A stretch of DNA of 64,000 nucleotides, taken from IMG/VR virus record IMGVR_UViG_3300021431_000089, positions 1 through 64,000 of that record. One strand, 5' to 3'. The number at the start of each line of letters is the position of its first letter. Position 1 is the stretch's first letter. The stretch comes from a virus (lineage: Duplodnaviria; Caudoviricetes). The position numbers were made by a program, and so were the translations under genes. Positions 26,969-59,040 of the stretch are shown piece after piece. The notes beneath the pieces are model-generated. The model was given only the letters and a program-made list of their open reading frames with translations, was not told the origin of the DNA and searched no databases.

Positions 26969-28288
26969 ATGAAAGTTACTACACGCGAAGTTAAGTTTCG
27001 CGACCCTAACGGGCGGATGGTGAGCTCGCTCGTTATTGGCAATGGATCACTCCATGACGAAGTCGCTGACTACCTGGATAATAATCCAGAGCCAGTAGCC
27101 ACAGCGACAGGAGAATGGCTCACCGAAAATATTACACAGCCCACTACGCCTGTGGTGGACACATCATTAAAAATATCTGGCGCCGCTGCAGATTCTAAAA
27201 CAGTCGGGGATGAGTTAGATGAGTTGAAGAGCGAAATAAGTTCTAAAACAGGACTGTCAGAAGATTTTAAAGTTGCGCTTGATGCGTTCATGACAGCGAT
27301 GCTATCACTCGCTGATAATGTTGCTTATGACGACAATATAAATGGTGATGTAATTTACACTCAAATCGAAACTGCAAAAAATGATGTCCATAGCGCAATG
27401 TATCCACCTGCCAGTCTGACAAGGATCACAGCAGATTATAGACAAAGCGGAGATGTTTATGATACTGCAACGCTTAATAGTCTGAAGTCTGATCTTGTTG
27501 TTATAGCGATTTACGATAGCGGAACACGCGAGACGGTTACTAACTATGCACTTAGCGGAACGCTGACAGAAGGAACTAGCACAATTACTGTTTCGTATGG
27601 TGGCAAAACAACCACATTTAATGTCATTGTTTCTGCATCTCCTTTAGAGCCTGTTGCAGGTGCATATGCTATTTGGGACGCAAGAGATTACACAGTAGGG
27701 CAGACATGGTCTGACAGAATTGGTAGTATCGCATTGACTCCTACAGGAAGTCCGGTAAAAGCCAACGGAGCGGTACAGTTCGATGGCACTGCTAAATACT
27801 TTAGCTTTGGGTCATTATCTGTGCCGACAGCGAGTGGTGTTGTCTGCATTCAAGCATCTTTTAAACTGACTGATCTCACAAAGACATCGTTTATTGTTTG
27901 CGATGATGTTGCCGAAAATGCAAAGATTAACATCGCTCTCCGACCACAGGATGGAGTAATTAGAATACAGTTCTTTGGCGGCAATAGGGCACAAACAATT
28001 AACTACAGTTACACATTTGATAGTGACTGGCATTTCTTAACCGCAAAATTAGGTGAAGGAACTAAGATTGTGTATGTTGACAATACAATGATTGAGAGCA
28101 AAACCGATTCTACAAACACTAGCATTGCACAAATGCTGAATTCTGCGACTGCATTAAAATCTGGGGCATATACGGTTTACAATGGATATTCAAATATGTA
28201 CCTTAGATCGCTTTATATCTATACAAAGTCATTAAGTGATGCGGACATAGCAAATAACTATAGCGTAGAAAGTACACTATGGGGTTAA
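26969..28288 (+). CDS. Ig-like + LamG/ConA-like lectin domain protein (cassette A, gene 1)
   Basis: DTSLKISGAAADSK motif; bacterial Ig-like SGTLTEGTSTITVSYGGKTTTFNV; LamG-like DSDWHF..IVYVDN..IYTKSLSDADIANNY. Confidence 0.7.
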   Translation: MKVTTREVKFRDPNGRMVSSLVIGNGSLHDEVADYLDNNPEPVATATGEWLTENITQPTTPVVDTSLKISGAAADSKTVGDELDELKSEISSKTGLSEDFKVALDAFMTAMLSLADNVAYDDNINGDVIYTQIETAKNDVHSAMYPPASLTRITADYRQSGDVYDTATLNSLKSDLVVIAIYDSGTRETVTNYALSGTLTEGTSTITVSYGGKTTTFNVIVSASPLEPVAGAYAIWDARDYTVGQTWSDRIGSIALTPTGSPVKANGAVQFDGTAKYFSFGSLSVPTASGVVCIQASFKLTDLTKTSFIVCDDVAENAKINIALRPQDGVIRIQFFGGNRAQTINYSYTFDSDWHFLTAKLGEGTKIVYVDNTMIESKTDSTNTSIAQMLNSATALKSGAYTVYNGYSNMYLRSLYIYTKSLSDADIANNYSVESTLWG

Positions 28289-28292
28289 TCTG

Positions 28293-29132
28293 ATGGCTAT
28301 TTACGATAAAAGCGGAAACACATTAAATGCCGTATATGACAGAGGTGGAAACGAACTCACTACTGCATATGACAGACCCGGAAATTTGATATACACAAAA
28401 GGAAGCGGCAGAGAACTCTTGTTTGAAGACGATTTCAACGACTTCGATTCGACAATGTGGATGCATGAAATCGGTAATGTCAGAAATTACGATTCGGAAT
28501 TACAGTGTTACCGTGCCGAAAATGTCAGTATTGAAAATTCCTGTCTTGTATTAACCGCAAAGCGTGAATCATATGGTGGAAAGGCATGGACGAGCGGATC
28601 GATTAGCGGACAGACATTGCAAGCATTTAAATACGGAAGATTTGAGGCGAAAATCAAGTTCCCTAATGTAGTCGGTGCATTCGGTGCGTTTTGGATGGCA
28701 GGTTCAAACTTTTGGAAGGAATATGTCGATGGTGGCAGACCTACAAACATGGGTGTTATATGGCCAGAATGCGGCGAAATTGATATAACAGAAACAATGC
28801 CCGGCAATGCTACAGTAGCGCAAGCGAACATGTGGACTTACACAGGATCGTCAATGGGCGGTGGAAGAAGCACAAGCATAGTATCTTCTGACTGGCATAT
28901 ATATGCGTGTGAGTGGACAAGCGAGTACGTTGCTATATTGCTTGACGGTACAGAGTACAAGCGGTGGACATTCTCGGATTATGATGCTTCAGCTGTGCAA
29001 GCGTATCATCTGCCGTTCTATATGATTCTTAACTTGGCGGTTGGGGCAAGTGGGGGAACTCCTGCAAGTACAACAAACGAAATGAAGATGTATGTTGATT
29101 GGGTCAGAGTGTATGCGCCGTTAACTAACTAA
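28293..29132 (+). CDS. GH16 glycoside hydrolase with N-terminal YDxxG repeats (cassette A, gene 2)
   Basis: FEDDF, FKYGRFEAKIK, AFWM, WPECGEIDITE (ExDxxE), NLAVG, MYVDWVRVY. Confidence 0.9.
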   Translation: MAIYDKSGNTLNAVYDRGGNELTTAYDRPGNLIYTKGSGRELLFEDDFNDFDSTMWMHEIGNVRNYDSELQCYRAENVSIENSCLVLTAKRESYGGKAWTSGSISGQTLQAFKYGRFEAKIKFPNVVGAFGAFWMAGSNFWKEYVDGGRPTNMGVIWPECGEIDITETMPGNATVAQANMWTYTGSSMGGGRSTSIVSSDWHIYACEWTSEYVAILLDGTEYKRWTFSDYDASAVQAYHLPFYMILNLAVGASGGTPASTTNEMKMYVDWVRVYAPLTN

Positions 29133-29171
29133 AAGGAAACTCTAAATCCAAAATAAAAGCCATCAGTTAAC

Positions 29172-29203
29172 GGGTGGTAGTTGACCACTATCACCCTTTA
29201 TTT
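29172..29203 (+). terminator. Intrinsic terminator
   Basis: GGGTGGTAG/CTATCACCC stem followed by TTTATTT. Confidence 0.6.
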
Positions 29204-29218
29204 CCTTCTCATTCTCTT

Positions 29219-29253
29219 TTGAATGTATACACAAATGTGCTATAATGTGTATA
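29219..29253 (+). promoter_or_regulatory. SigA promoter with inverted-repeat operator
   Basis: TTGAAT-16-TATAAT with extended TG; TATACACA (29226-33) / TGTGTATA (29246-53) inverted repeat. Confidence 0.7.
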
Positions 29254-29402
29254 TGAAAGAAAAACAGATACATATTAGAGCAGATGATGAGTTTATGCGG
29301 AAACTTGAGTATCTGATGAGGATCAACAAATTTAAGTCCTTGTCAGAGACCATCCGCAGAATCATCGAAAAGGAGTACAGGAAGGAGAAAGACGATGGTT
29401 GA
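29253..29402 (+). CDS. Ribbon-helix-helix (CopG-like) regulator, 49 aa
   Basis: MKEKQIHIRADDEFMRKLEYL...SLSETIRRII; below the ORF-track size cutoff. Confidence 0.75.
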   Translation: MKEKQIHIRADDEFMRKLEYLMRINKFKSLSETIRRIIEKEYRKEKDDG

Positions 29403-29712
29403 ATTTATTGAGAAGGAAGTGTTGCTTGAAAAGATTCAGAAGTTACTAGATCAGCCAACTTTTATGCATGACAACGATGATTGGGAGAGCGGTGTTACTG
29501 CGGTGGAAACATTGATAGAATCCGCCACATCGTATAACTTTGATGAGGCGGGAAAGTTTCTGCGTTGTACAGTGTATGAAGACGAAAACAAGAAATCTGA
29601 ATCAGTTCCGGTTGACTTCATGCGTGAATACATTCAGCGAGACTGCATGAGTATTCATGACATATCTGTCATCAGTCAGATGTATGAAGCCTATAAACAT
29701 AAGTTTCAATGA
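29395..29712 (+). CDS. Hypothetical protein
   Basis: AAGGAG RBS; overlaps the RHH gene end. Confidence 0.65.
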   Translation: MVEFIEKEVLLEKIQKLLDQPTFMHDNDDWESGVTAVETLIESATSYNFDEAGKFLRCTVYEDENKKSESVPVDFMREYIQRDCMSIHDISVISQMYEAYKHKFQ

Positions 29713-29721
29713 GGGAAAAGA

Positions 29722-29901
29722 ATGGATGATTTCGAATTTATTGCAAGGTACGATATTGCGGAAACAAAAAAGCAGAAGTTCATGTGTTGGCTCGCAAAAA
29801 TTCTTGGAGCGCATTATGTCACAGCTATCGGCAGAATCATGCTACTGCCAGATGACTATCACATGCTTGCTGATGTTTATGGGGTTTCAATCCCATGGTG
29901 A
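29722..29901 (+). CDS. Hypothetical protein, 59 aa
   Basis: GAGGG RBS; MDDFEFIARY...; fills the gap between neighbours. Confidence 0.5.
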   Translation: MDDFEFIARYDIAETKKQKFMCWLAKILGAHYVTAIGRIMLLPDDYHMLADVYGVSIPW

Positions 29902-29916
29902 TCGGAGGAGAAAATC

Positions 29917-30126
29917 ATGAAGTGGATTTATTTAGAAGACGCAGAGCCGCAGAAACGTGAAAAGTATCTCTGCTGTTATCAAAGTGGATACGTTTGCACG
30001 GGCAACTATCTCGGAAATGGACTTTGGAAAATGAACGGCAAGTATTCCAAAAAGCCGTATGCTTGGATGGAACTGCCGAAACCTGCGGAAGCCAGACCGA
30101 TTGATTTGAGGAAGTTCGCAGAATGA
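29917..30126 (+). CDS. DUF551-like small phage protein
   Basis: MKWI...P start and AWMELPKP end; GGAGGAG RBS. Confidence 0.65.
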   Translation: MKWIYLEDAEPQKREKYLCCYQSGYVCTGNYLGNGLWKMNGKYSKKPYAWMELPKPAEARPIDLRKFAE

Positions 30127-30257
30127 AATTCAACGAGCTATCAACAATTCAGAAATTCGGATATGCAAGACATAACTTACTATGGTACATTCACGATGCA
30201 TTCCCAACTAGGCACTTCAAACATGGCAAGCACAAGAGGCTGAGGAAGGCACGTTAA
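30123..30257 (+). CDS. Small basic protein, 44 aa
   Basis: ATGA coupling; MKFNELSTIQKF... Confidence 0.45.
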   Translation: MKFNELSTIQKFGYARHNLLWYIHDAFPTRHFKHGKHKRLRKAR

Positions 30258-30277
30258 CTGCTGTAAAGGGGTACGAA

Positions 30278-30373
30278 ATGAGCATACTAATCGGCATTTG
30301 CATCGTAGCGATTGGTTTCGTAACAACAGTCGCCGGTGTAATAATTGGAGAATACTTTCTAACTTATAAATGA
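30278..30373 (+). CDS. Small single-TM peptide, 31 aa
   Basis: MSILIGICIVAIGFVTTVAGVIIGEYFLTYK; AAGGGG RBS. Confidence 0.45.
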   Translation: MSILIGICIVAIGFVTTVAGVIIGEYFLTYK

Positions 30374-30574
30374 AACAATGAATAACATTAGCATGACACA
30401 TATGGTGACATTATGATAATGCCGATGATAATTACAACGATCCTTTTCTCGCTTTGCATTGTTGGGGAGTCGTGGCTACTCCGCTATCCACCATCGCTAG
30501 AAAACTTTAAATCACAGATTCACAGGGGAATCTCCCCTACTACATTTTAAAATAATCATTTTCTGCACCAAAAT

Positions 30575-30597
30575 CGACGGCGAAAGCTGTCGTTTTT
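30575..30597 (+). terminator. Intrinsic terminator
   Basis: CGACGGC-GAAA-GCTGTCG-TTTTT. Confidence 0.65.
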
Positions 30598-30620
30598 AAT
30601 TTTGTTAAGGAGGTTTATAA

Positions 30621-31112
30621 ATGCCTAATTATAACTACCCTTACGGCATGTACCAGCCTGTGCCACAGCAGCCGCAGGCATATACAGGTACAACGCCATA
30701 TTATCAGACGCAGCCTTATGGCGCATCCCAGCAGTACAGTCAGTATCAGCAGCCGATGCAGAATTATGCAAACGCTGTTAATAACAAGAACATTATCTGG
30801 GTTGCCGGACAGGCTGGAGCTGAAGCATATCAAATGGAACCGGGATCGAGAGCTGTTCTTCTTGATTCCAAAGATCAGGTTTTCTACATCAAGGTCGTCG
30901 GCCCGGATGGAAGACCTGAGCCGTTGATGGCATTTAAGTACGAGCCGCTCAATCTCAATATGCAGAGCGAATCTTCACAGGCCGCTCCGCAGATTGACAC
31001 AAGCAACTTTGCCACCAAGGATGACCTTAACGAGATTATGAATTATATCAAGCAGATGTCTAACCGTAATGGCCAGGCATCCTCTCCGAAAGGAGCAAAC
31101 AAAAATGTCTAA
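30621..31112 (+). CDS. Uncharacterised Q/Y/P-rich protein (module gene 1)
   Basis: AAGGAGG RBS; low-complexity N-terminus, then IIWVAG..AEAY..LLDS..FYIK. Confidence 0.7.
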   Translation: MPNYNYPYGMYQPVPQQPQAYTGTTPYYQTQPYGASQQYSQYQQPMQNYANAVNNKNIIWVAGQAGAEAYQMEPGSRAVLLDSKDQVFYIKVVGPDGRPEPLMAFKYEPLNLNMQSESSQAAPQIDTSNFATKDDLNEIMNYIKQMSNRNGQASSPKGANKNV

Positions 31113-31341: not shown

Positions 31342-31386
31342 TTTTACGAAATAACTAGCTATTTATAGCTTGGAGGTAAATTCTCA

Positions 31387-32166: not shown

Positions 32167-32180
32167 CAGGAGGTGCTGAC

Positions 32181-32627: not shown

Positions 32628-32630
32628 GCT

Positions 32631-33029: not shown

Positions 33030-33069
33030 CTTTCGCAATAAGTGGTAATTATTAGCTGTACGCTATGAC

Positions 33070-34745: not shown

Positions 34746-35522
34746 ATGGCGAGATTGTCGGTACGTCAGGCGATTAACAACGCCGCAGCGAAGATTAATG
34801 AAGCGCAATCGGAAGCTGACGCAAAAACACTTAGGGCGATATACAAACGATACCTGCCAATAGAAAAACGTGTGTATACGCGCATATTTAATGATATCAT
34901 TACAACATTCTATAATTCATACGACCCAACCAGGTATAGCCGACAAGGTAATGTAGGTTCAAAAAAAGGTGGATTATATAACGTACTCGATATTGAGCGG
35001 GCACGGCGCAAGCAATCGGACTCTTTTGGAACATATACTATCGGTGTTGACGATGATGACGGGTACAGCATGATCAACCCGGAAGAAATGACGATTCAAA
35101 AATACGGCGCGGGTAAATATAATGCTCCGGAAGAAATTTTCCATACTGTTTTTGAAATGGGGTTTCATGGCGGGGCAAGAAAAATATCAGCACAAAAGGC
35201 TAAAAAATGGGGGCAACACCCTCAGCCAGGAGTTCCATTTTACAGGCGTCGTGGTTTCGTTACTGCAGACAATGGAAAAAAAATCAACCACAGGTGGGGT
35301 CGGTGGTTCCCAGCAACCAGCCCGGCCAAGTCTAGTCTCTCTCCAAAGAGTCAATTTATTAAGGAGACAGAAGACCTAGGCGATGTTGGTGGGGAACTGT
35401 ACGAGAAATTAAGCACAATCGCGCATGAAGAAAATGCGAAAACGCAGAAAATATTAGTGCCAAAGCTCAGGGAAATTTTCATTAGAGAAACCGTCCAAGC
35501 ACTCAAGAAGGGAGGTGATTGA
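34746..35522 (+). CDS. Hypothetical pre-TMP protein
   Basis: GAGGTGA RBS; FYNSYDPTRYSR. Confidence 0.55.
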   Translation: MARLSVRQAINNAAAKINEAQSEADAKTLRAIYKRYLPIEKRVYTRIFNDIITTFYNSYDPTRYSRQGNVGSKKGGLYNVLDIERARRKQSDSFGTYTIGVDDDDGYSMINPEEMTIQKYGAGKYNAPEEIFHTVFEMGFHGGARKISAQKAKKWGQHPQPGVPFYRRRGFVTADNGKKINHRWGRWFPATSPAKSSLSPKSQFIKETEDLGDVGGELYEKLSTIAHEENAKTQKILVPKLREIFIRETVQALKKGGD

Positions 35523-35527
35523 CATTC

Positions 35528-38500
35528 ATGCCTGATATTGTCATTCAAAATAATAACAATTTTAGCATCGACAATGAGGCTGAAATTGCAAGATTGGAAA
35601 AGGATTTAGCAGCATCTGACGCTGAGATGACGAAGTTGCGAGCGCATGCCGAAGAGTTAGAGCGGAATTGGGAAAGAGTTAATGGCGAACTGGAAACCAC
35701 TAATGATTTGCTTGAAAGCGCACGGCAGAGAGTGTCTATGCTTTCGCGTTCGGGTGATTTTACAAAAACGTTTCAGCGTGGTATTAGGGAACTACAAGGC
35801 TATCTCAAAAGCGTCAATTTCAATGATATTGAAGGCCGTGAGCATAAGGATGTCAAAGGATGGATCGAAGAGGTCGGCAAAGGCGCTATCACAGCCGGAG
35901 AGGCAATTGAAAAATTCAAAACACAATATAAAGAATATATTCTTTCTGCCGTTTCAGATTCCGGTGATCAGGGTAAATTTTTTACAGATTTGGCCGTTTC
36001 CCTCGACAACCTAGCAGAAACTGCAAAAAAAGTTTTAGACATAGTTACAGACTTAAAGACAAATGGCGTCCAAACGGTGCAGGAAGTTAAGAGCGGTGTG
36101 GACGGTGCCAATAGCACTATCTCTAAAACAACAGACACAATGACTGGCCTGACGGCAGTGTCCAAGGAGACTGCTGAGGGCATGCAGGGCATCGTGACGT
36201 CTTTGAAGGATTTTGCGGAGGTTGGGGCCGGAACAAACATTGCGAACGTGACGGCATCGCTAAATGCATTAGCCGGAGTTGGGCGAGGAACTTTTGGCGA
36301 TAAGTCTGTAAAGAATATTGTTTACCTTGTCCAACAGCTACAAGCATTATCGGCTCAGGGACAAAATATTCAGCCGATTAAATTTGATGTAACTGGTGTA
36401 GCGGCTTTGAAGAGCATCGACTCTAAATCTGCAGATAACATAATAAAAGTTGTTGATGCTCTATCGAAGATGACCCCAGCCATCGAGTCTATTGCCAGCA
36501 TCGGCTCATCGGCTGACGGGATTAAAAGTCTTATTGAGCTGTTTAAGACAGATCCATCTGGGGGGATCAATAATTTAAAAGTTAGTAAGGCTTCGTTGTC
36601 GAATTTAAAAGAGTATCTCCCTCAGATCGCAGGGGTCAATACAAAGAAGCTTCAAGAGATCTTTGGTATCAACACAGCAGGCATTAACAGTCTCAAGGTC
36701 AGTAAGGCTTCTGTTACAAATGTTGTTAATTTGGCACGGGCAGCAGAAATATTACGAACCAATGGTATCGACTTATCCCTTAAGGGCGATGCGATTGATG
36801 AGTTAAACAAGCTGACTCAGGAAGCCGTGGATGCGACTGATGCAACCGAGCAACTTGATCGCAGCCTCGATAATGTTTCTGAGGCATCTAGTCTTAATAA
36901 GACGTTAACAGAAACAGGAAGCCTTCTTGACGGTGTGACTCTGAAAATAGAAAAATTCACCGATGGTTCGTTCAAGAACATGCAGGATCAGCTGAAGGAA
37001 AAGTTCCCGTCTATCGATGAATCATCGCGGAATCAAATATTATCCGTTTTGCAGGACGTCGAAGGAAAGATCACATCGGTACAGGCAAAATGGGCAGAAT
37101 TCCAACACACTGGCGCTAAGCAGGTTTCGCAGCTCTTAATAAACGGCGTCGACGAGCTTGGCAGATCCTTTCAAAAGGTTATTAACTGGCAAGAGATTTT
37201 GGCCGATAGAGAGAGTCAGACATATAAAATTGTTCCATTTGCCGAAGAGACTGTTAAATTCACGGCGCAAGAAGAGAAACTAATTGAAATTGACGGTCGC
37301 TTAGCAGATGTTATCGTCGCCAAGCGCAAGGCTCAAGAAGATTATAATGCCGCTTTGGAGGCTGGTGTCGCAAGCAAAGAACTTGGTCAAATGAAGAACC
37401 TCATCGGTTCGTATGAGATGCTTGAAGACGCCATTAAGAGAGGCGGCGTGGCGCAAAACGACTACACCCTCTTTATGAGTAATGCAGCTTCGAAGAGTAG
37501 GCTGTTAACAAGCGTTCTCAGAGAACAGACCACCGCTCTAAAAGAGCAAGAGACGGAGATGGTCGATACCACGGCTGCAAGGCTGGAACTGCAAAACGCA
37601 CAGTTAAAAGTCCAAGGTGTCATCGATAAGGCGCTCAGCAATGGCGTCACAGAAGACAACGAGGCGCTCCGCGGCTTAATTGATATGCGAGATTGGTTTA
37701 GCCTTCTCGAGGAAGAAATAAGCCGTGTTGGCGTGTCACAGGAAAACTATGATTATGCATTAAAGAATTCTTCCGCTGAAATTCAGTTATACTCTAAACA
37801 ACTGGGATTCGCTATCGATTTAAACAAACAGGAGGCTGCCGCTGCCAGAGAGGCGGCAAAAGCAGAAGCGGCCCGTGTTAATCAGACTCAGGCTCGTGGC
37901 GCAATCACAACGGAGCGTGGGCGAGTTTCTGGCATTATCAACAGTGCTACTGGTTTGGGGTTGTCAGACCAGGACGCAAACTTACAAAGTTTGGTTACCT
38001 ACACCAATCTTCTTGATATTCTCGAAAATGAGTTAGAAAGTGCCAATCTCACACAAAAAGAATTCAATACGATTATGGGTAATCTGAAGTCAATCTTCAA
38101 AGAACCCGAAATCACAGTTAAAAATTTAACAAAAGCATTAAAAGAGCAACAGGCTCATATTGCCAAGTCTGCAAGCGTGTATAAAGATATTGAAAAAGCT
38201 TGTCAAGACTATGCAAAGGCGGCCGAAAGCACAGATGCAAACGTGCGCGGCGCTTATGACGGTATCAAGAAACTTAGTTTTAATCTGGATGAGGCAGGAG
38301 AGAAACTGCGAGCTGGAAAAATATCGGCCGAACAATACGACGAAGAGTTAAGAAATACTACAGCGTCGTTAAAAGAGTACGGCAAAACACTCGATGATGC
38401 GGGTTACGGAACGGATAAAGTTTCTAATAAGTTCGCCGAGTTAGCGCAGCAACTCACCCGTTTCATCACCCCTCTTTATCTTGCACGTAAGGCGTGGCAG

Positions 38501-41500
38501 ACCATTAAGGATATGGCTAACGTCGTCATTGAACTCGAAGATGCGTTTGCTCAGTTGCAGATCGTAACAGGCGCGACCGATAAAGAACTCGAAGAGTTCT
38601 ATGATACGGCAGCGAACATCGCGACGACACTTGGAAAGAGCATTACCGATATCGCGGCTTCAATTGAAGTTTTCTCTCGACTCGGTTATGCGTTACCAGA
38701 CGCAACGACGCTCGCGCAGTACGCAACGATCTTATCGAACGTTGCGAGTGTCTCAACAGATGAGGCGACGACTGGTTTAACCTCTATCATTAAAGGTTAC
38801 AACATGCATGTCGAACAAGCAGAACATGTTTCCGATGTGCTTGTAGATATTGGCCAGAAGTACGCAGTATCTGCTGGCGAAATGATGTCGGCATATGAAA
38901 GAGCTGGTGCTGCACTGGCGGCAACTAATACATCATTTGATAAATCCGCCGCTATTATTGCTGCAGCCAACGCAGCTATCCAAAATGCGAACACAGTCGG
39001 AACTGCCTTGAAGACCATTTCTGCACGTATCCGTGGTTCTAAATCCGATCTTGAAGAACTTGGCGAAGATACCACCCTTCTCGCCGATGGCTTCTCTAAA
39101 TATGCAAAGGAGCTGAAGGCGATCACTGGCGTCAACATCATGGTCGAAGGGACAACCAATCAGTTCAAAGACCTTTACGATATCATGGACGGCATTGCTG
39201 GTGTTTGGGATCAGCTCACCGACACTCAGCAGGCACGTGCCGCTGAAATCCTTGGTGGTACCAGACAGCTTCAGGTTATCGCCTCTATCATTAGTAACTG
39301 GGGTGATGCGGAAAAAGCATTAGTCACAGCACAGGAATCGGCTGGCGCTGCCGCACGTGCGAACACTATTTATATGGACACGACGACTGCCCATATGAAC
39401 CAGTTCAAAGCAGCATTTCAAGACCTTTCTCATACGCTTATTGAAAGCGATCTGTTAAAGGGGGTCGTTGATCTTGGCACTAATCTCTTAAAGATGGCCG
39501 ATGCGGCAATCGAGCTCACAAGGTCGTTAGGTGGATTGAAACCTATACTCGGTGCGATTGTCGGACTCGTGTTAATGCTTCGCGGAGATGCGGTAATCGG
39601 TCTTGTCAGCAAGCTTGGCGGTGTCTTTAGTAAGGTTATTACTGGTTTGATCAGTGGCCTACAAGCTGTTACAACGGCTGGTACTGGAACTATCACTGTA
39701 CTTGACCTTGTTAATGGAACAGCAAATACAGCGGCTGCCAGCATGACCACTTTCCTCTCTGTTGCTGGCATGGCTGTTATCGCCATTTCTGCTTTAGCAG
39801 CAGCGATTAAGTCTGCACGCGAAGAACGCAGAGCTGAAGCCGAGGCTTCGATCAAAGCTGGGCAGGCTTATGCCGATGAAGAAAAAGAACTGTTGGAACT
39901 CGTCAATAAATATGAGGATCTCGAAAGAAGCGGTGCCGCGCATGAGGACATCATGGCCGCCAGAGACGCAGTTATCGATAAACTGCGCGAGGAAGGACAA
40001 GAAGTTGAAGAGCTAAGTGATCGTTACCGCGATTACACACAGGAAGTCCGCAATTCTGTTATCGAGAAATTAAAAGCTGACAGTTATAACCGAGGCAATT
40101 CCATTGAATCGGCAAGGGAACAGTTGGATACTGAGAATTATGGTGGCTATCGCGATGTACGTACCATTGAATGGGATAGAAGCGATAGACAGAAAAATAC
40201 AGAAGCTCTTAAATCGATTCGTGAATATCTGCAGTTATCCAAAACTGGTAACAAGGGTGATCGCGCCGAGATCCAGTTAGATGTCGAGACGGGTAATGCG
40301 ATGGATGCATTCAACAAAGTTGAAGCAGCCATGAAGAAACTGCAGGAAGAAGGCAACACAACTAACGCAGTATACCGTGAGTTGTCAAGAATGTATGACG
40401 AACTCTCAGCTGGGGTTGACACGTATAATGGTTTGCTTACCGATCAGTTAAACACAACAGCGGCTATCCAGATGTTGTCTACCGAAACTCCTAAGTCGAT
40501 TGATGACTATGTCAGGATGAGGGAAAGCATCATCGGAATGATTTCCGGCCAGGAAGAGTTCAAGAATACAACAATCGATGTTGCGGCAGCCGTTGACAAC
40601 TTCCTCGCAAAACAAACAGATTTTGAATCATTTAACGCAGCGCTGAAGAATGTTAGCGAAGACGCTAAAGCCGAATATGATTCGTTACTAAAAGAAGTTT
40701 CCGATAAGAATATCGATATAACAAAGACCGTCTACGGCAATATCGATATGAATCATCGTCAGGCCATTGAGTGGACGAATGAGATGATCTCCAAATATAT
40801 CCACGAACTTGAATCGTGGGGAGAGGATATTAATTCGATTCGCGACACTCTCGGCGGCACCGTTTCTACTGTATACGGCGGATCCGAAGAATTCGATGGA
40901 ATTGAAATTGCTTTCTCGCCTATTCTGCAAACAGAGAACGGCCCCGTTCTCCTATCTTCTGACTCCGTGTATTCTTATATCGAAGCACTGCTTGATAAGG
41001 TTCGCGCATCTGGTGAGTCATGGACGACAGAAGATCTCTTAAAACTTGACTCAGAAGGTCTTGTGATTGAAGGCCAGCGCATCCAGAATATTATCGCGGA
41101 CGTCGGCGAAACAGCAATAAAAACTGGCGAAGCGATGCATTACGTCGGTGATAGCGGTGCATTGGCTATGGCCCGTGAGGAACTCTACAAACTTGCATAT
41201 CAGGCATATGCCGCTGCAGATAGTGCGAATGCGCTCGAACAGGCTTATGCCGGGTTTAGTGATGTAAAGTCGGCGTTTGACGGTGTGACAACATCGTTGA
41301 AAGCTATCACAGATATGCAAGACCTTGTCGCCGAGGGATTTGATGTTGATGTCGAGAAAGCAATGGCGCTTGCCGAAACATATCCGCAAATTCTCGACAA
41401 TGCTACAGTCACAGCTGACGGGCAGTTACTATTAAATGAGGCAACAGTCAACTCTTTCCTCGAAAGCAAACAGGCTGAAATCGGTGCATCGATTGATGCT

Positions 41501-43777
41501 AAGATTGCAGACCTCGAAGCAGATAAAGCGACACTTGAAGCCAAGCGCGACTTTGCTATCGCCCAGCTTGAGATGGCACAACAAGTCGCAAATGGTGAAA
41601 ATGAACTAACTGTTGAGCAGTTACAGAACAGACTCAATAATCAGAACCAGGTTGTACAGGCGTTGATTGGTATGGGCTTCGATGAGAGCGAAGCTTATAA
41701 AGCTGTCCTGCAAGCCATGTCTGATAACACTGAAACGTTCGATGGCAATGTAGCCGATACGGCAGAAAATATTGCAGCCAATATGGCATCATCATCGTCT
41801 AGTATGGCGACTGGGTTTAATGCCAATGTGCGTGCCATGAATACTGGTATGCAGATTCTGGTTGGTAACGCGCATCAGGTTGCTGCCGCTATCGATGCAA
41901 TGGGCAGAGGTGAGGTGTCTGGCGCGATCGGTTATACAGATGGCGGTGGCGACGGGCAGACGATTAATACATTTGGCAAACAACTTTCGAAGAAATCTTT
42001 GGTGAGCGCCAATGTAAAATATCGGTCTCGCAACACGCAACTGAATAATATCATTAAGCAAATTAAGACCGATATAAGTGGGTACACTTCTGCTATCAAT
42101 GCGATCAATGGTCAGATTTCAGCATTAAATGCTATTAGAAATAAGGCAATCAGCGATATTGCCAATTACACACCTAAGACGTCCTCCGGCTCGGGCCGTG
42201 GCGGCGGCGGTGGAGGTGGAGGCGGCGGCGGCGGTTCCGGCTCTTCGTCCAACGAAGAGACTTGGTTCCAGAAGCAGTACAAGCTCCACCAGCACTACGT
42301 CAACATGGACAAGGAGACGCAGGCCGACTTCTTGAAGTGGCTCGACAAGGCTTATAAGCAGGCATATAAAGAAGGCATCATTACTCTGGATGAATTCTAC
42401 AAATACGAAGAAGAAGTATACAAAGGATTCAACCAGATCAAAGAGAATGCGAAGTCTACTTTTGATGCATTGGTCGACTACCGTCTCAAGATGCTCCAGA
42501 AGGAACGCGAGAATCAGAAAGAAGAACTTCAGAATCAGCTTAGCGATTTGAAAGACTTCTATGATAAACAGCGTGACATGCTTCAGAAGTCTCAAGATGA
42601 GCAGAAGTACATCAATGAACAGGCCGAGAAGCGTCAGAGTGTCACAGACCTCAAGACCGAAATTGCACGCCTTCAGTTCGACACTTCAGCTTGGGCAACT
42701 AAGCGCAGAATCGAACTGCAACAGCAGCTCTCGGACGCAGAGAAAGACCTGCAGGATTTCGAAGATGAACATGCTTTAGCTGAAGCTTTAGATGCTTTGG
42801 ATGCGGCATACAATGCCGAAGAAGAACGCATCAATAAAGAGATGGAGGCTATCGATGATGTTCTTAATGACCCGGATGCTCTGTACAATCAGGCACTGAA
42901 GGACATTAAAGGTAATACCGAAGACCTCTTCAAAGCTTTCCTTCTCTTTAATAAGAAGTACGGCGACGGCAAAGATGACACAGTCAAGTCGATGTGGGAA
43001 GAGGCGTTCAAGAACAGCGAAGCGTATAAGAAGATTTTTGGTTCTTACTACGAAGGAACAAAGATCGGTAACTATACTGGCTATAAAGCTCCGACTACTA
43101 AATCATCTTCATCATCGACAAAGAGCAGCAGTTCTGGATCGAGTTCAAGCAAGAGCAGCAGCTCTTCATCGAGCAGCAAATCCTCTGGCACCCCTTCTAA
43201 CGGTCAGACGGTTCAGGTTAAAACATCCGCTACAAACTTCAGCCCGAAGAGTGGCAGTGTCCGTATGGCGTCATTCGTTCCGGGCAGTCAGTATACTGTC
43301 TACCAGACGAGCGGCGATGAAGTTCTGATCGGACGTAACGGTGTCTATACTGGCTGGGTCTATAAGAAGGATCTTGTCGGTTATAAGAAAGGCACCAAGA
43401 ACGCCAAACCGGGTCTGCACAAAGTCAACGAGGAAGGCGCAGAAGCGATCTTCACTTCTGGCGATGGAAATAAGTATCGTATGTTCTCTGGTGGTGAGAA
43501 AGTTCTCAACGCCAAAGCAACAAGCTTCTTATATGAATTCGCCACAGCTGGCGCAGAGATCCTCGACAAGATGAAGGGCTCCGTATCTGATTCGTTCAGT
43601 CATATTGGAACATTCAATCAGCCGATCAATATTTCGATGGGCGACATTGTTATTGAGGGCGATACTAACCAGCAGACCGTTTCCGAGATCAGGCGTGCAC
43701 AGCGCGAACAGATCAACGACGTACTCAAATCATTCAAATCATATCAGATCACGTTATATCGTGGTGTTAAATACTAA
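35528..43777 (+). CDS. Tape measure protein
   Basis: ~2750 aa helical; TP901-type core (LQIVTG..FSRLGY..VGTALKTISARIRG); C-terminal SH3-like domain (VLIG..TGWV). Confidence 0.92.
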   Translation: MPDIVIQNNNNFSIDNEAEIARLEKDLAASDAEMTKLRAHAEELERNWERVNGELETTNDLLESARQRVSMLSRSGDFTKTFQRGIRELQGYLKSVNFNDIEGREHKDVKGWIEEVGKGAITAGEAIEKFKTQYKEYILSAVSDSGDQGKFFTDLAVSLDNLAETAKKVLDIVTDLKTNGVQTVQEVKSGVDGANSTISKTTDTMTGLTAVSKETAEGMQGIVTSLKDFAEVGAGTNIANVTASLNALAGVGRGTFGDKSVKNIVYLVQQLQALSAQGQNIQPIKFDVTGVAALKSIDSKSADNIIKVVDALSKMTPAIESIASIGSSADGIKSLIELFKTDPSGGINNLKVSKASLSNLKEYLPQIAGVNTKKLQEIFGINTAGINSLKVSKASVTNVVNLARAAEILRTNGIDLSLKGDAIDELNKLTQEAVDATDATEQLDRSLDNVSEASSLNKTLTETGSLLDGVTLKIEKFTDGSFKNMQDQLKEKFPSIDESSRNQILSVLQDVEGKITSVQAKWAEFQHTGAKQVSQLLINGVDELGRSFQKVINWQEILADRESQTYKIVPFAEETVKFTAQEEKLIEIDGRLADVIVAKRKAQEDYNAALEAGVASKELGQMKNLIGSYEMLEDAIKRGGVAQNDYTLFMSNAASKSRLLTSVLREQTTALKEQETEMVDTTAARLELQNAQLKVQGVIDKALSNGVTEDNEALRGLIDMRDWFSLLEEEISRVGVSQENYDYALKNSSAEIQLYSKQLGFAIDLNKQEAAAAREAAKAEAARVNQTQARGAITTERGRVSGIINSATGLGLSDQDANLQSLVTYTNLLDILENELESANLTQKEFNTIMGNLKSIFKEPEITVKNLTKALKEQQAHIAKSASVYKDIEKACQDYAKAAESTDANVRGAYDGIKKLSFNLDEAGEKLRAGKISAEQYDEELRNTTASLKEYGKTLDDAGYGTDKVSNKFAELAQQLTRFITPLYLARKAWQTIKDMANVVIELEDAFAQLQIVTGATDKELEEFYDTAANIATTLGKSITDIAASIEVFSRLGYALPDATTLAQYATILSNVASVSTDEATTGLTSIIKGYNMHVEQAEHVSDVLVDIGQKYAVSAGEMMSAYERAGAALAATNTSFDKSAAIIAAANAAIQNANTVGTALKTISARIRGSKSDLEELGEDTTLLADGFSKYAKELKAITGVNIMVEGTTNQFKDLYDIMDGIAGVWDQLTDTQQARAAEILGGTRQLQVIASIISNWGDAEKALVTAQESAGAAARANTIYMDTTTAHMNQFKAAFQDLSHTLIESDLLKGVVDLGTNLLKMADAAIELTRSLGGLKPILGAIVGLVLMLRGDAVIGLVSKLGGVFSKVITGLISGLQAVTTAGTGTITVLDLVNGTANTAAASMTTFLSVAGMAVIAISALAAAIKSAREERRAEAEASIKAGQAYADEEKELLELVNKYEDLERSGAAHEDIMAARDAVIDKLREEGQEVEELSDRYRDYTQEVRNSVIEKLKADSYNRGNSIESAREQLDTENYGGYRDVRTIEWDRSDRQKNTEALKSIREYLQLSKTGNKGDRAEIQLDVETGNAMDAFNKVEAAMKKLQEEGNTTNAVYRELSRMYDELSAGVDTYNGLLTDQLNTTAAIQMLSTETPKSIDDYVRMRESIIGMISGQEEFKNTTIDVAAAVDNFLAKQTDFESFNAALKNVSEDAKAEYDSLLKEVSDKNIDITKTVYGNIDMNHRQAIEWTNEMISKYIHELESWGEDINSIRDTLGGTVSTVYGGSEEFDGIEIAFSPILQTENGPVLLSSDSVYSYIEALLDKVRASGESWTTEDLLKLDSEGLVIEGQRIQNIIADVGETAIKTGEAMHYVGDSGALAMAREELYKLAYQAYAAADSANALEQAYAGFSDVKSAFDGVTTSLKAITDMQDLVAEGFDVDVEKAMALAETYPQILDNATVTADGQLLLNEATVNSFLESKQAEIGASIDAKIADLEADKATLEAKRDFAIAQLEMAQQVANGENELTVEQLQNRLNNQNQVVQALIGMGFDESEAYKAVLQAMSDNTETFDGNVADTAENIAANMASSSSSMATGFNANVRAMNTGMQILVGNAHQVAAAIDAMGRGEVSGAIGYTDGGGDGQTINTFGKQLSKKSLVSANVKYRSRNTQLNNIIKQIKTDISGYTSAINAINGQISALNAIRNKAISDIANYTPKTSSGSGRGGGGGGGGGGGGSGSSSNEETWFQKQYKLHQHYVNMDKETQADFLKWLDKAYKQAYKEGIITLDEFYKYEEEVYKGFNQIKENAKSTFDALVDYRLKMLQKERENQKEELQNQLSDLKDFYDKQRDMLQKSQDEQKYINEQAEKRQSVTDLKTEIARLQFDTSAWATKRRIELQQQLSDAEKDLQDFEDEHALAEALDALDAAYNAEEERINKEMEAIDDVLNDPDALYNQALKDIKGNTEDLFKAFLLFNKKYGDGKDDTVKSMWEEAFKNSEAYKKIFGSYYEGTKIGNYTGYKAPTTKSSSSSTKSSSSGSSSSKSSSSSSSSKSSGTPSNGQTVQVKTSATNFSPKSGSVRMASFVPGSQYTVYQTSGDEVLIGRNGVYTGWVYKKDLVGYKKGTKNAKPGLHKVNEEGAEAIFTSGDGNKYRMFSGGEKVLNAKATSFLYEFATAGAEILDKMKGSVSDSFSHIGTFNQPINISMGDIVIEGDTNQQTVSEIRRAQREQINDVLKSFKSYQITLYRGVKY

Positions 43778-54779: not shown

Positions 54780-56122
54780 TGCCTACAGCAAGATTAATTC
54801 CAAGTGATTACTACCTGAGTAGTTCTTCATACTTGTCCGTATCCAACGAGGATAATATGTATGCCAATACCGATAGCACAACATATGCAAGTGTTTATAA
54901 TTCTCGGGCGAGCACCACGTCATATTACATCTACCTGCGTGGATTTAATTTTGGTTCGGTTCCAAGTGCTGCGGTCGTGAATTCGTTTACGGTTAAGCTT
55001 AAGGCAAGTGAAAGCGGTGTGAGCACATCTACATCTTATAAACCATATTTGGCCAATGGTACATCTGCCATCAACGGAACGTGTGATCCTATAACAGCAT
55101 CAGTTCAGACACTTGAGTTTGATGGATTGACGGCGGATTGGGAAACAATTGTTGGATACGGAAGTGACTTCGGGATTCGCATCAACTGTCGAAGAGCATC
55201 AAGAAACACCGCTGCTTATATGTATATCTATGGCGCAGAGATAGAAGTCAATTACACCGTTCCCAACCCGGCGACGGTGACATCAACTCTGGTTGGTAAC
55301 GGTACAATTTCACCAAATGGTGCATATTCAACATCCGAAGGCGCAACATATGAGTTAACGATTACGCCCGATGATGTCTCGGAGGAAGTGACAATTACAA
55401 AGGACGGCGTTGATGTAACCGCCGACTTGGTTGTGCATGCGCCCGGGCAGACGACCAATTTCGTCCCCGCCGATGTTACCACATCCTATATACAAAGCGG
55501 TTCTTCATATGCAGAGTATGCAGTCGGGCATAGCGCGGAAGATCCGTCCAGTTCTGGAACGTCATCGAACATGTATGCTTCAGATACAGGTTATGCGGAT
55601 TACACATTTAATTTCAGTTCCATTCCGAGCAACGCCGTGATCGATGAGTTCTCTGTCAGGTGCTATGGGCACAGAGAGAATGCAACCATTGACTCAAGCC
55701 ACATCTCGAGTGTAGCAATAGTTGTGAATGATACCGCCGTCAGTGAAGAGGTTGACTTCCCATCGACAAGTAATACAACAATTACTGTTGAGCCGACGGG
55801 TAATATCACGAGAGCAGATCTCAATAATTTAGCCATTCGTCATACGGTTGGTTATTACGGTGGACTGGTTCTAGGTATCACTATAACAATTACATATTCA
55901 ACCGGTTCCGGTACGATTGATCATTATACATACACTTACACTGTAAGTGGAGATGCGGCGATCATCGTTACTATTGGATCGCAGGAGAAGATGTACCTTA
56001 AAGTCAATGGATCGTGGAAGGTCGTTGATAAAGTTTATAAGAAAGTTAATGGCGCCTGGGTTGAGCAGACAGATTTGGCGTCGCTTTTCAATACAGCCTA
56101 TGCCTATGTGCATAGAGAATAA
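54779..56122 (+). CDS. Beta-sandwich adhesin-like virion protein
   Basis: Two FNF.S(V/I)PS.AV domains; C-terminal YLKVNGSWK..VYKKVNGAW. Confidence 0.6.
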   Translation: MPTARLIPSDYYLSSSSYLSVSNEDNMYANTDSTTYASVYNSRASTTSYYIYLRGFNFGSVPSAAVVNSFTVKLKASESGVSTSTSYKPYLANGTSAINGTCDPITASVQTLEFDGLTADWETIVGYGSDFGIRINCRRASRNTAAYMYIYGAEIEVNYTVPNPATVTSTLVGNGTISPNGAYSTSEGATYELTITPDDVSEEVTITKDGVDVTADLVVHAPGQTTNFVPADVTTSYIQSGSSYAEYAVGHSAEDPSSSGTSSNMYASDTGYADYTFNFSSIPSNAVIDEFSVRCYGHRENATIDSSHISSVAIVVNDTAVSEEVDFPSTSNTTITVEPTGNITRADLNNLAIRHTVGYYGGLVLGITITITYSTGSGTIDHYTYTYTVSGDAAIIVTIGSQEKMYLKVNGSWKVVDKVYKKVNGAWVEQTDLASLFNTAYAYVHRE

Positions 56123-56134
56123 GGAGGTAGGACT

Positions 56135-57709
56135 ATGTCAGAAGTGTCGCAGATTAGAGTCAAAGGCACTTTATATGATATCAAGGACGCGGTCGCGAGA
56201 CTTGCGACTGGTGCCCCTGCTGTGGCATCAACCGCTGCGGGCATGACCGACACGTCCAAGATTTACGTATATACGGGTACTGAAAGTGGCTACACTAAAG
56301 GCCACTGGTACTACCACGACGGAACATCGTGGGTGAGCGGCGGCGTATACCAAAGCTCAGGAATCGAAACAGATTCTAGCCTGTCCGTAAGCGGCGCCGC
56401 GGCAGATGCTAAAGTTACAGGCGACGCAATTAACAATGTTGTTTACGTCGGAACCGAGGCAACAGATAGTCATACACAGGTCTTAGTATCGCCGACAAAT
56501 ACCGAGTTGGATATTGTTACGCAGGCCGATTTCGATGCGGAGATCAGTGATTTGAGGATCGCAATAAGTTCTTCACAGGGCATGAGCGCAGAGTTCAAAG
56601 TGGCACTGGAAAATTTAGTATCGCATGTTGCCTTCATTGGCGATGATCCTACTGGACGGGCATATATTGATGCACTGCATACGGCTATGTATCCTCCTGC
56701 TAATCTGACAAGGATTTCAGCGGTATATACGCAGAGCGGGACAGTTTATGCTACGGATTCTATTGATTCGTTGAAAGATGATTTGACAGTTACTGCATCG
56801 TATAGCAACGGAACAATATCAACGGTTGCAAAGACTGATTACACATTAAGCGGAACACTTACTGAGGGCACAAGTACTATCACAGTTTCGTATGGTGGTA
56901 AGACAACCTCGTTCAATGTCACTGTTTCATCCGTTCCGGAGTATGGCACGTTTACTCCGCAGAATATCGTAAACGGAAAATACATTTCTGATACTGGTGT
57001 TATTTCAGATTCTACATATGGATCATATAGTGAAGACTATTTACGAGTAATGTCCCATGTATATTTTATTAAATTCGATAACCTGAAAGGATCGAACCCT
57101 AACTATAGAATTTGCGAGTATGATTCTACAAAGAATTACTTGAGGCAGAACCATGTTTCAAACACTGGAGCGAATTATGGCTTGACGGGTTCATCGAATA
57201 CTTTTGCTTTCCCTGACGATACCAGCTATGTAAGATTGTCTTGGTATGGTGAAGATCAGCTCCGCACGCCTTCGGTCACTATAAACACAGTGTCCTATAC
57301 TGACTTACCTATGGAAATAGGTGATATAGATAGTGCTACTGGCGAGAATAAAGTGGAATCCAAGCGTTGCAGAACGCAAACATTTATTCCTGTTACAGGT
57401 TCCACTATTACCGTTTCCAACTGTCCTTTCTTTGCAAACTGGCATGCAACGGCGGTCAGCAAAGAGGGCACTGATGGTTGGGGCAACGGTGCAGGATATT
57501 TCTTTAGGTGTTATGACTCATCGCATAATATCGTAGGAACGTTATCTTATTACAACAACAACATTACAGATGTCGCTTTACCGAGCGGCACTGCATACGT
57601 CCGAATGATCTTCCAAAAGAACAGCAATGATTTTCCAACGGATTTTGATAAGTTGGTGATACAGCCGATTGTGATTAATGGTGTCAATTACAGAATTGTG
57701 AAGGCTTAA
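56135..57709 (+). CDS. Ig-like + tandem CBM-like domain protein (cassette B, gene 1)
   Basis: DSSLSVSGAAADAK; Ig domain paralogous to 26969-28288; two YD...P..T.YVR domains. Confidence 0.7.
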   Translation: MSEVSQIRVKGTLYDIKDAVARLATGAPAVASTAAGMTDTSKIYVYTGTESGYTKGHWYYHDGTSWVSGGVYQSSGIETDSSLSVSGAAADAKVTGDAINNVVYVGTEATDSHTQVLVSPTNTELDIVTQADFDAEISDLRIAISSSQGMSAEFKVALENLVSHVAFIGDDPTGRAYIDALHTAMYPPANLTRISAVYTQSGTVYATDSIDSLKDDLTVTASYSNGTISTVAKTDYTLSGTLTEGTSTITVSYGGKTTSFNVTVSSVPEYGTFTPQNIVNGKYISDTGVISDSTYGSYSEDYLRVMSHVYFIKFDNLKGSNPNYRICEYDSTKNYLRQNHVSNTGANYGLTGSSNTFAFPDDTSYVRLSWYGEDQLRTPSVTINTVSYTDLPMEIGDIDSATGENKVESKRCRTQTFIPVTGSTITVSNCPFFANWHATAVSKEGTDGWGNGAGYFFRCYDSSHNIVGTLSYYNNNITDVALPSGTAYVRMIFQKNSNDFPTDFDKLVIQPIVINGVNYRIVKA

Positions 57710-57711
57710 GT

Positions 57712-59007
57712 ATGGCAGTATATGATGTGAATGGTGTTGCTCTTAATGCCATATATAATGCTGATGGAAGTGAATTGAACAAGGCTTATAATGCCGACGG
57801 AAACATTGTTTATCAGAAGCAATCAATCGTAATTCCGACGGGTGATTATTCAACACAGATTGGTTATCTGTCGGATTGGTTGATTAATCTTGCGACATAC
57901 ACAGCGAACGGTGAGACATATGTCAAAGAGCGTTACCGCATGGACACATGGGCATGGTCAAGCGGTGCAACGGCAATGGCTTGTGCTCAAACTGCATGGA
58001 TGTATCTGAACTTGTGGCAGTACACGGGTAATAGCAATTATTTGACTACCGCTCGGAACCTTGTCACGAGTCTGGAAAAAGGTAGAGCGTCAAACGGTGG
58101 ATTCCCCATGTTCATCTATAACGCAGGCGATCATTATATGGATACCAACATTTATACAGGCGGTAATTCAGAAGTCCCGATCAGTCTGTTCAGATGTGCG
58201 GAGATTGATGCCGAAAATGCACAGACATATATCACGAACGGTCTGCGGTCATGCGAATATCTGCTTTCGATTCAGAACAGTAATGGCTCATGGAGAACGG
58301 TAACGAATGACACTTCTCAGACGGCTATGTTCACTGCACAAGCAATAAGCGCATTGGCTATGGGGTATCAGCACGCTTCAAATAAAAGCGTTTATCAGAC
58401 GGCTATAGAAAAAGGTATTGCTTTTATTCAGACACAGTTACTGTCAGACAATCGCATTAAGACTTGCCGTGAAGTAAGTCCGAACACTGAATACTGGCGA
58501 CCGCCTACATCAGACCAGTCTATCGTTATAAGAGGGCTTGCCTTAGCAGAATACTATTTGCCGAATAACTCCAATGTTTCCAGTTGGAGAACATTACGGC
58601 GGACACTTTTGTCATATCTGAATCAGTGCATCGGTTCTGAGGGTGCTGTCAGAAATGGCCTTGAAACAACAAATCTTCCGAATGATTTCTATGGATTGAC
58701 TGACCATGTATACACAACATCGTGGGCGATTGAAGCATATCATTTCTGCGGACTTGTTGATAACGATCAGACTGAAATGAACATATCCAAGGGAATCGTT
58801 GATTTCTGTAAAGGAAACCTGTATTTCAACACAGGCAACGAAAACACGAACGGAACGCTCAGAGGTGCGTACAACATTCAAGACGGCAACTGGGATACAT
58901 CAGCGTTGACACAGGATAGCGGTAACGAAGGCGGTGCTGAGATGATTTATGTCGGATGGGTAATGTCTCCGATTTGTACATGGATGATGAAGTACCAAGA
59001 GAACTAA
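57712..59007 (+). CDS. (alpha/alpha)-toroid enzyme-like protein with N-terminal YD/YNxxG repeats (cassette B, gene 2)
   Basis: QW-type repeats YLLSIQNSNGSW and RASNGGFP; N-terminus paralogous to the GH16 gene. Confidence 0.6.
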   Translation: MAVYDVNGVALNAIYNADGSELNKAYNADGNIVYQKQSIVIPTGDYSTQIGYLSDWLINLATYTANGETYVKERYRMDTWAWSSGATAMACAQTAWMYLNLWQYTGNSNYLTTARNLVTSLEKGRASNGGFPMFIYNAGDHYMDTNIYTGGNSEVPISLFRCAEIDAENAQTYITNGLRSCEYLLSIQNSNGSWRTVTNDTSQTAMFTAQAISALAMGYQHASNKSVYQTAIEKGIAFIQTQLLSDNRIKTCREVSPNTEYWRPPTSDQSIVIRGLALAEYYLPNNSNVSSWRTLRRTLLSYLNQCIGSEGAVRNGLETTNLPNDFYGLTDHVYTTSWAIEAYHFCGLVDNDQTEMNISKGIVDFCKGNLYFNTGNENTNGTLRGAYNIQDGNWDTSALTQDSGNEGGAEMIYVGWVMSPICTWMMKYQEN

Positions 59008-59040
59008 AGGAAATTTTAACACTAAACGAATACGTTACAC

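Follow-up and report, generated by a model that had tools for sequence, protein, structure and literature searches.

A 16-bp dyad-symmetric DNA motif appears to mark the borders of receptor-binding and glycan-degrading modules in rumen phages

We analyzed a 64,000-nucleotide stretch of DNA (hereafter, the window) that makes up the first 64 kb of a 111,102-bp virus record in IMG/VR (IMGVR_UViG_3300021431_000089; Duplodnaviria, Caudoviricetes), here called G000 and estimated to be 94% complete. The record represents a siphovirus of rumen Clostridia, and prophage-like relatives are present in rumen metagenome-assembled genomes of Lachnospiraceae, Ruminococcaceae, Oscillospiraceae, and other Clostridia. 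Our subject is a short DNA motif that borders two modules in this window, locus A (26969-29147) and locus B (56135-59021), each of which consists of two genes. An initial annotation had described a single layout for both loci, in which a left site inside the first gene is followed by an immunoglobulin-like (Ig) domain and variable domains, then by a second gene with a shared N terminus and a variable enzyme domain, and finally by a right site. It had proposed that cassettes are exchanged at these sites. Every part of that layout is present where the annotation placed it. The four sites all lie on the plus strand in the same order. The head-side operon ends with locus A and the tail operon ends with locus B, with an intrinsic terminator after each.

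At locus A, the open reading frame (ORF) and Pfam matches of gene 1 (26969..28288, +) identify an anchor containing the peptide AAD-x-K-x-x-GD, a linker, a Big_3 Ig domain (23.4 bits, above the cut-off), and a ConA-like lectin domain (Laminin_G_3, 26.4 bits, just under the cut-off). Left site A (27224..27239, +) is a decayed copy of the family 16-mer that deviates at 3 of the 11 defined consensus positions and is read in frame as L-K-S-E-I-S. Gene 2 (28293..29132, +) begins with a triple YD-like tag (28293-28406), which recurs in gene 2 of locus B and in approximately 25 relatives, and continues as a GH16 glycoside hydrolase. Specifically, PF00722 matches with 58.7 bits against a cut-off of 22 (E = 6.5e-16), the catalytic E-x-D-x-x-E motif takes the form E-I-D-I-T-E (approximately 28776-28793), and NCBIfam beta-glucanase families also match. 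Right site A (29130..29147, +) carries the family motif in a TAAAAG variant with one mismatch, and gene 2 terminates at the TAA within it. When we scanned the 111-kb genome with a position weight matrix (PWM) built from 22 copies of the motif, this site was the best match on either strand (score of 16.1). An intrinsic terminator follows at 29172..29196 (+).

Gene 1 of locus B (56135..57709, +) has an anchor that matches a PHROG virion structural protein, followed by a linker, a Big_3 Ig domain (E = 3e-8), and variable C-terminal domains. Left site B (56552..56567, +), read in frame as L-R-I-A-I-S, is more decayed than left site A. Gene 2 (57712..59007, +) also starts with a triple YD-like tag (57712-57825) and continues with a putative glycan-active domain of the (alpha/alpha)6-toroid type. 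The gene's own Pec_lyase match reached 17.5 bits, below the Pfam cut-off of 22, and some of its 71 homologs carry PF09492, PF07470, or PF06662. No relatives of this gene were found in IMG/VR by single-sequence or alignment search, and a metagenome scan for them returned 11 loci. The YD-like tag is missing from bacterial homologs of the toroid enzyme, which have other N termini instead (compared with the gene 2 starts of L003-L037; L253-L262), and the motif is absent from the bacterial homologs without the tag. Right site B (59004..59021, +) has two mismatches to the family motif and supplies the TAA stop codon of gene 2. It was the third-best PWM match in the genome, with a score of 12.5. Intrinsic terminators follow at 59041..59071 (+) and 59103-59121.

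Loci A and B are paralogous modules predicted to pair receptor binding with glycan degradation. The gene 1 proteins of the two loci align over approximately 220 columns, from anchor to Ig domain, with 41% identity (E = 2e-38), and their homology already begins before the left site. Between the gene 2 proteins, similarity is limited to the N-terminal 38-residue tag (19/38 identical, E = 6e-9). The same arrangement is found well beyond this genome. A search with the Ig domain returned 35 IMG/VR loci, and in nearly all of the complete ones gene 1 combines a variable anchor, a linker, one to three Ig domains, and a variable end. Gene 2 then follows with one to three YD-like units and one of a diverse set of enzymes, including SGNH esterases, phosphodiesterase-like and EEP-like domains, and glycosidases. 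These gene pairs bear out the proposal that variable enzyme modules are fused or docked to resident anchors. Because most phages with the Ig module share nothing else with G000, the module evidently crosses phage lineages.

Across relatives, the module's 3' border carries a noncoding motif with the consensus TTAAAG-N5-TTTAA, positioned just after or overlapping the stop codon of the last gene. In 45 noncoding copies from distinct loci, the median distance from the upstream stop of a fiber-module gene was 4 nt, and the median gap to the next long ORF was 174 nt. The motif itself supplied the TAA stop in 15 of the 45, as it does at both right sites in the window, where the overlap with stop codons had been described correctly. 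Most of the 16 positions carry 1.0 to 2.0 bits of information (0.7 to 0.8 at two of them), and the flanks carry approximately 0 bits, leaving an isolated island of 16 nt. The motif usually stands at an operon end, 25 to 40 nt before an intrinsic terminator. As an RNA hairpin, it would form a stem of only five A-U pairs. The motif is rare elsewhere in these genomes, with one or two copies per 100 kb genome, a number that ruled out a generic promoter or regulatory motif.

Further copies of the right motif occur in other rumen phage contigs and after phage-borne homologs of gene 2 of locus B. An exact IMG/VR scan with one variant of the motif returned mostly chance matches or matches within ORFs (L-K-G-x-F-K peptides), along with approximately 15 in true context. 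Among 82 loci, right-type motifs were located downstream of the left site in 30 cases and upstream in none. The initial annotation had suggested scanning related phages with a matrix of the sites; when we did so with the PWM, the top two matches in the genome of a close relative, G009, were the ends of its cassettes.

Several additional matches stand outside this pattern. The second- and fourth-best PWM matches of G000 (window 4558-4575, +, score of 13.0; 2588-2571, -, score of 12.1) both fall in the unannotated left 10 kb. Right-type motifs occur in tandem in L006 (approximately 7319-7370), L020 (8498 and 8533), and L134 (approximately 20-80), spaced 20 to 35 nt apart with noncoding DNA between them. 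L074 has two such motifs at 172 and 384, 212 nt apart with nothing coding between. Tandem copies could be empty cassette positions or cooperative binding sites. At the empty end of the G009 tail operon (62773-62800, in L237), a stop codon is followed by a 15-nt palindrome containing TTTAA and then by A-A-A-T-C-A-G. Similar to the motif's right half and right flank, this stretch may represent a half-site or a scar.

The same 16-mer recurs at the left border, inside a coding sequence. We gathered 78 distinct fiber genes through the anchor peptide AAD-x-K-x-x-G-D, a pattern that does not include the site. The left motif lies four to five codons after this peptide, at the end of the gene 1 anchor, and is read in frame as L-K-x-x-(L/I). 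Codon choice at the site was highly skewed across the 78 genes. The first leucine was encoded by TTA in 58 cases, by CTA in 12, and by no other codon (70/70), and the lysine that follows was AAG in 66 of 74. The fourth codon ended in T in 56 of 78, and leucine at the fifth codon was TTA in 38 of 44. Background usage, taken from the first related set (L003-L037), was 10% for TTA, 4% for CTA, and 54% for AAG. As a control, we looked at a conserved L-K within the Ig domain of these genes, where codon pairs vary widely. The third position of the invariant anchor glycine carries 0.0 bits, from which it follows that silent sites are saturated in this sample. Conservation of the left site ends abruptly at its 3' edge. 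We also considered a -1 slippery heptamer (T-TTA-AAG), which was ruled out because T does not consistently precede the motif.

The left and right sites therefore share one motif, as the initial annotation had supposed: the relatives carry the same 16-mer at the DNA level at both borders, with as few as 2 differences in 16 positions between some left and right copies. This pattern was far less apparent within the window. The left sites are indeed identical at 21 of 25 positions, with all four differences nonsynonymous and the same codon kept at all four shared residues. Yet four other 25-nt windows of the same alignment reach 21 to 22 of 25, and the background rate of identical codons at residues shared by A and B is 40/82, so that four of four gives a P value of approximately 0.06. 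The claim of constraint on DNA beyond the peptide is thus upheld by codon bias in the 78 genes and not by the window alone. The proposed inverted arms had a similarly divided outcome, with true 5-bp arms and a 6-bp spacer in the family consensus and, at the four window sites, a fit (3 to 4 of 5 matches) equal to the value most often seen in random windows. The right sites stand out even on window evidence, since their similarity ties for the top 6 among 5,778 comparisons of stop regions between gene pairs, while the left sites and the arms are at chance. Because the relatives reveal them as degenerate members of a strongly conserved family motif, the signal is nevertheless far above chance. 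On comparison with the family consensus, the right sites of this genome are good copies and the left sites, which carry TTG and ATA codons, decayed ones.

If the motif marks module borders, homology between relatives should break there, as the initial annotation predicted. We compared 21 locus pairs whose sequences upstream of the left site are at least 75% identical. Homology ended between -11 and +37 nt from the start of the site in all 21 and between 0 and +30 nt in 18. L156 and L173 are 100% identical over 6 kb and diverge inside the spacer; pairs that are 96% and 94% identical over approximately 5 kb diverge at the last base of the motif. Between locus A and the close relative G009, homology stops 11 nt before left site A. 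Breaks at the right motif complete the picture. L005 and L118 have flanks that are approximately 90% identical, and the whole segment from left site to right motif is different, with the distal domain of L118 lacking an Ig module. A common downstream backbone begins at the right motif, behind different cassettes, in L005, L018, L118, and L158, and likewise in L253 and L259. Position 59019, the final base of the right site as first delimited, is also where homology between locus B and the metagenome locus L253 ends.

The position of a module can also differ between relatives. At the place of locus A, G009 has a gene pair resembling that of locus B, which ends in a motif supplying its stop codon. 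A second gene set follows, ending in a second motif, and the tail-operon end is empty. In total, more than 100 related phage loci keep the 16-base motif at points of module swapping. One further rearrangement was seen in L187 (5009-7306), where a unit of approximately 456 nt, comprising the anchor end, left site, and following domain, is tandemly duplicated and the first copy is closed by a stop. The second ORF of L187 is followed at 12 nt by a right motif and, another 370 nt on, by a 71-amino-acid fragment that resembles the N-terminal domain of a recombinase.

Comparison of these sequences indicates that the modules are delimited by a 16-bp dyad-symmetric motif, TTAAAG-N5-TTTAA, that a phage family keeps at the DNA level. 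An isolated noncoding island of 16 bp that recurs at silent positions of an ORF demonstrates a functional DNA element. The motif is tied to receptor-module exchange because it lies at the borders of replacement, tracks the upstream stop codon, and is often the stop codon of unrelated genes. We therefore lean, by a modest degree, toward a role as a joint for exchanging receptor modules. Of the two copies that delimit a module, the left lies in frame at the last conserved codons of the gene 1 N-terminal anchor, and the right is noncoding, flush with the stop of the module's last gene and often supplying it. At such joints, distal receptor modules could be exchanged between coinfecting phages or prophages. 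The segment from left to right joint, or from gene start to right joint, would be replaced, and the anchor and downstream backbone would stay.

How rejoining might occur is a matter of lower confidence. The most likely mechanism would be that a protein recognizes the motif and directs breakage and rejoining; an active joint of this kind is a tentative proposal. In most carriers, the protein would have to be something other than a phage tyrosine or serine recombinase, such as a host-encoded enzyme or a member of another family. Doubtful, but worth stating, is the stronger version in which a dedicated site-specific system with an as yet unrecognized recombinase or nuclease, possibly host encoded, moves distal fiber domains, with their docked glycan-degrading enzymes, as cassettes between phages and between genome positions. 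Minimal efficient segments are 23 to 27 bp for Red-beta and 31 to 34 bp for RecA (PMC3945230). At 16 bp, the motif is shorter than either, which favors protein recognition over plain homologous recombination. Relaxed annealing at microhomology would be compatible with this length, and we regard a passive joint of that type, used by phage annealing recombinases, as rather unlikely.

A number of observations weigh against exchange at a dedicated joint. The left site is always read as L-K, and many Ig cassettes, namely, those whose anchors lack the L-K peptide, have no left site; near these cassettes, we found no TAAAG in other frames. Left and right sites are not obligatorily paired. Other left break points exist, for example at residue 33 in L005 and L029 and after the Ig domain in locus B of the window versus G009. 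Gene ends also serve as break points in motif-less modules (L013/L027 and L025/L033), and in some pairs identity tapers off ahead of the joint, the pattern expected of ordinary homologous recombination within the anchor. Because the left break coincides with the end of a conserved domain, the positions of the breaks are not enough to tell site-specific exchange from exchange driven by homology. In the 82 loci, there was no cassette common to two different backbones. No enzyme is linked to the sites, based on the recombinase families searched in three complete genomes (G001, G007, and G008). Finally, all of the evidence is comparative, and the sequences, which come from a small number of rumen data sets, are not entirely independent.

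The main rival is a regulatory role that coincides with module borders. Under this explanation, modules would be shuffled at the borders of domains and genes through ordinary recombination, either homologous or illegitimate, and the 16-mer, kept as a signal for expression in every infection, would merely coincide with these borders. It could be an operon-end or termination signal, a binding site for a regulator, or a translational pause caused by rare NTA codons. Overall, we judge this unlikely, though it has several points in its favor. Conservation of this strength is more easily accounted for by first-order selection. The position of the right motif at operon ends, shortly before a terminator, fits an operon-end signal, and a pause at the border between anchor and distal domains is conceivable since TTA, CTA, and ATA are rare here. 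The breaks at gene ends of motif-less modules and the lack of a linked recombinase can be counted on the same side. However, a pause cannot explain a noncoding 16-mer, the preference for AAG over AAA, or the T in the third position of the fourth codon. Moreover, the right motif tracks the upstream stop rather than the next gene or a fixed distance to the terminator, it is too scarce for a general promoter or terminator element, and one third of its noncoding copies supply the stop of unrelated genes.

The initial annotation had favored a specific form of active joint, an integron- or pdif-like system in which a tyrosine recombinase, either the product of ORF 9885-10910 or host XerCD, moves cassettes at 5-6-5 sites. 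Some features of the motif fit this proposal. The family consensus has the required arms and spacer, left and right sites can be nearly identical, and the pair with 100% upstream identity breaks inside the spacer. As at attC, ORFs terminate right at the site or take their stop from its TAA. In G009, two successive gene sets each end in a site, and tandem sites occur in L006, L020, and L134. ORF 9885-10910 (+) does encode an Xer-like tyrosine recombinase (Pfam Phage_integrase and SAM_4), and G009 retains a homolog with 70% identity. Against this, conservation is confined to 16 bp with uninformative flanks and no arms of 11 to 13 bp, complementarity beyond the arms barely exceeds expectation, and arrays longer than two were not seen. 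The motif is an isolated 16-mer, neither a 28-bp Xer site nor an attC, and thus falls outside both integron and pdif systems.

The candidate enzyme fares no better. ORF 9885-10910 lies 16 kb from locus A, and we found no link between it and the sites. It scored 38.5 and 23.5 bits with integron-integrase models whose cut-offs are 265 and 435, and it also fell far below the cut-offs of Xer models. The complete site-bearing genomes G007 and G008 have no homolog of this ORF, which speaks against its assignment as the cassette enzyme, and G001, G007, and G008 have no match to PF00589 or PF00239. From the lack of tyrosine and serine recombinases in these three genomes, it follows that no phage enzyme of these types is a constant partner of the sites. 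There is no recombinase gene beside locus A or locus B. A second tyrosine recombinase, probably an integrase, is encoded on the minus strand at the end of the window (63695-64000, extending to 64954 in G000); its homologs lie downstream of lysis genes in L018 and L020. On balance, an integron- or pdif-like system is improbable.

That the sites have no function and reflect common descent of duplicated genes plus chance is barely credible: A and B are paralogs whose left-site identity and inverted arms are at chance within the window, but this would leave unexplained the near-invariant silent positions beside saturated ones, the isolated noncoding island in dozens of otherwise unrelated contexts, and the strand- and side-specific association of 30 versus 0.

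Elsewhere in the window, the head module (approximately 12.4 to 22.6 kb) includes the large terminase subunit and portal, and an anaerobic ribonucleotide reductase, NrdD/NrdG (23769-26569), lies between it and locus A. G009 has NrdD without a separate NrdG ORF at the corresponding place. The tail module encodes a tape measure of 2,752 amino acids (35519-43777), Dit, Tal, and fiber proteins, and the length of the tape measure implies a very long tail. The GC content of the variable parts, which the initial annotation had proposed to compare, was slightly lower (0.41 versus approximately 0.46) and lay inside the range of other segments. In a blastn search of loci A and B against 50,697 GenBank phage records, there was no match. 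Two of the fiber loci contain unusual stop codons. In G001, a complete relative of 124 kb, the fiber-gene linker (L243, 13598-13640) has two in-frame TAGs where relatives have glutamine (I-K-Q-A-L-L-Q). In L200 (approximately 6049), the anchor has a TAG where other relatives have glutamate or, in L182 and L194, glutamine. Judging from these alignments, the phages of G001 and L200 probably read TAG as glutamine.

Phage host range is set by receptor-binding modules, which are known to be mosaic. Linker or boundary sequences that direct the joints between such modules have long been proposed and rarely shown. What distinguishes the 16-bp motif is the combination of silent-position conservation, a noncoding copy at the other end of the module, coincidence with module borders in dozens of comparisons, and frequent use as a stop codon. 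If it is an active joint, phages of an ecosystem with economic importance would possess a new type of device for generating diversity, and this device would offer a natural design rule for in-frame swapping of receptor and depolymerase modules. If it is regulatory instead, it would still be an unrecognized and sharply defined late-operon element of this phage group.

We compared the motif with known systems that diversify phage receptors or move gene cassettes. Tail-fiber inversion systems and shufflons (Mu Gin/G segment, P1 Cin, p15B Min, and R64 Rci) use inverted sites in one genome and an adjacent recombinase. Like them, the present modules have a candidate crossover site inside a fiber ORF after a constant N-terminal part, which is where homology ended in all 21 pairs, and a variable C-terminal part that travels with a downstream accessory gene. 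Unlike them, the modules have direct sites and no adjacent recombinase, and essential genes occupy the 29 kb that separate the two loci. Integrons have IntI beside the cassette array and an attC that is an imperfect palindrome of 57 to 141 bp with paired core sites. Xer/dif-type (pdif) sites are 28 bp long, with two 11-bp arms around a 6-bp spacer. The motif resembles both in that it lies at the 3' end of a cassette, often overlapping the stop codon, and in that cassettes can follow one another. It differs from integrons in having no IntI and no attC structure of 57 to 141 bp around its 16-bp block. The spacer geometry of pdif sites does fit, but just 5 to 6 bp per arm are conserved. In contrast to both systems, its cassettes hold one to several genes and have one border inside a coding sequence.

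Further parallels are found among the fibers and gene-border repeats of T4-type phages. In T-even phages, fibers and adhesins are swapped at conserved motifs, the His boxes of gp37 and the glycine-rich motifs of gp38, with changes in host range (PMC3157838). There, as here, short conserved motifs separate variable segments for receptor recognition, and exchange occurs at or between the motifs. The T-even motifs are conserved as protein structure, whereas here silent positions are kept and the motif recurs in noncoding DNA at the 3' end of the module. The PeSL cassettes of T4-type phages are mobile regulatory units whose repeats at gene borders allow modules to be shuffled and can give rise to mini-circles (Arbiol et al. 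2010, PMC2839356). PeSLs share with the motif the use of short repeated noncoding elements at gene borders, but they are units of a promoter and a stem-loop terminator present in many copies per genome. The present element is 16 bp long, occurs in one or two copies, has no promoter or terminator consensus, and is also found inside an ORF.

Tailspikes of Ackermannviridae form branched receptor-binding complexes with docking domains (PMC11414711). They resemble the present modules in having a conserved N-terminal docking part, interchangeable catalytic parts, and recombination at the conserved part. Our search of the literature returned no description of the 16-mer, and the system belongs to none of those compared. 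It is a case of modular exchange in which a short motif stands at the border and the homology of relatives breaks there. In contrast to the Ackermannviridae tailspikes, the tag here consists of one to three short YD-like units, and the DNA motif comes in addition.

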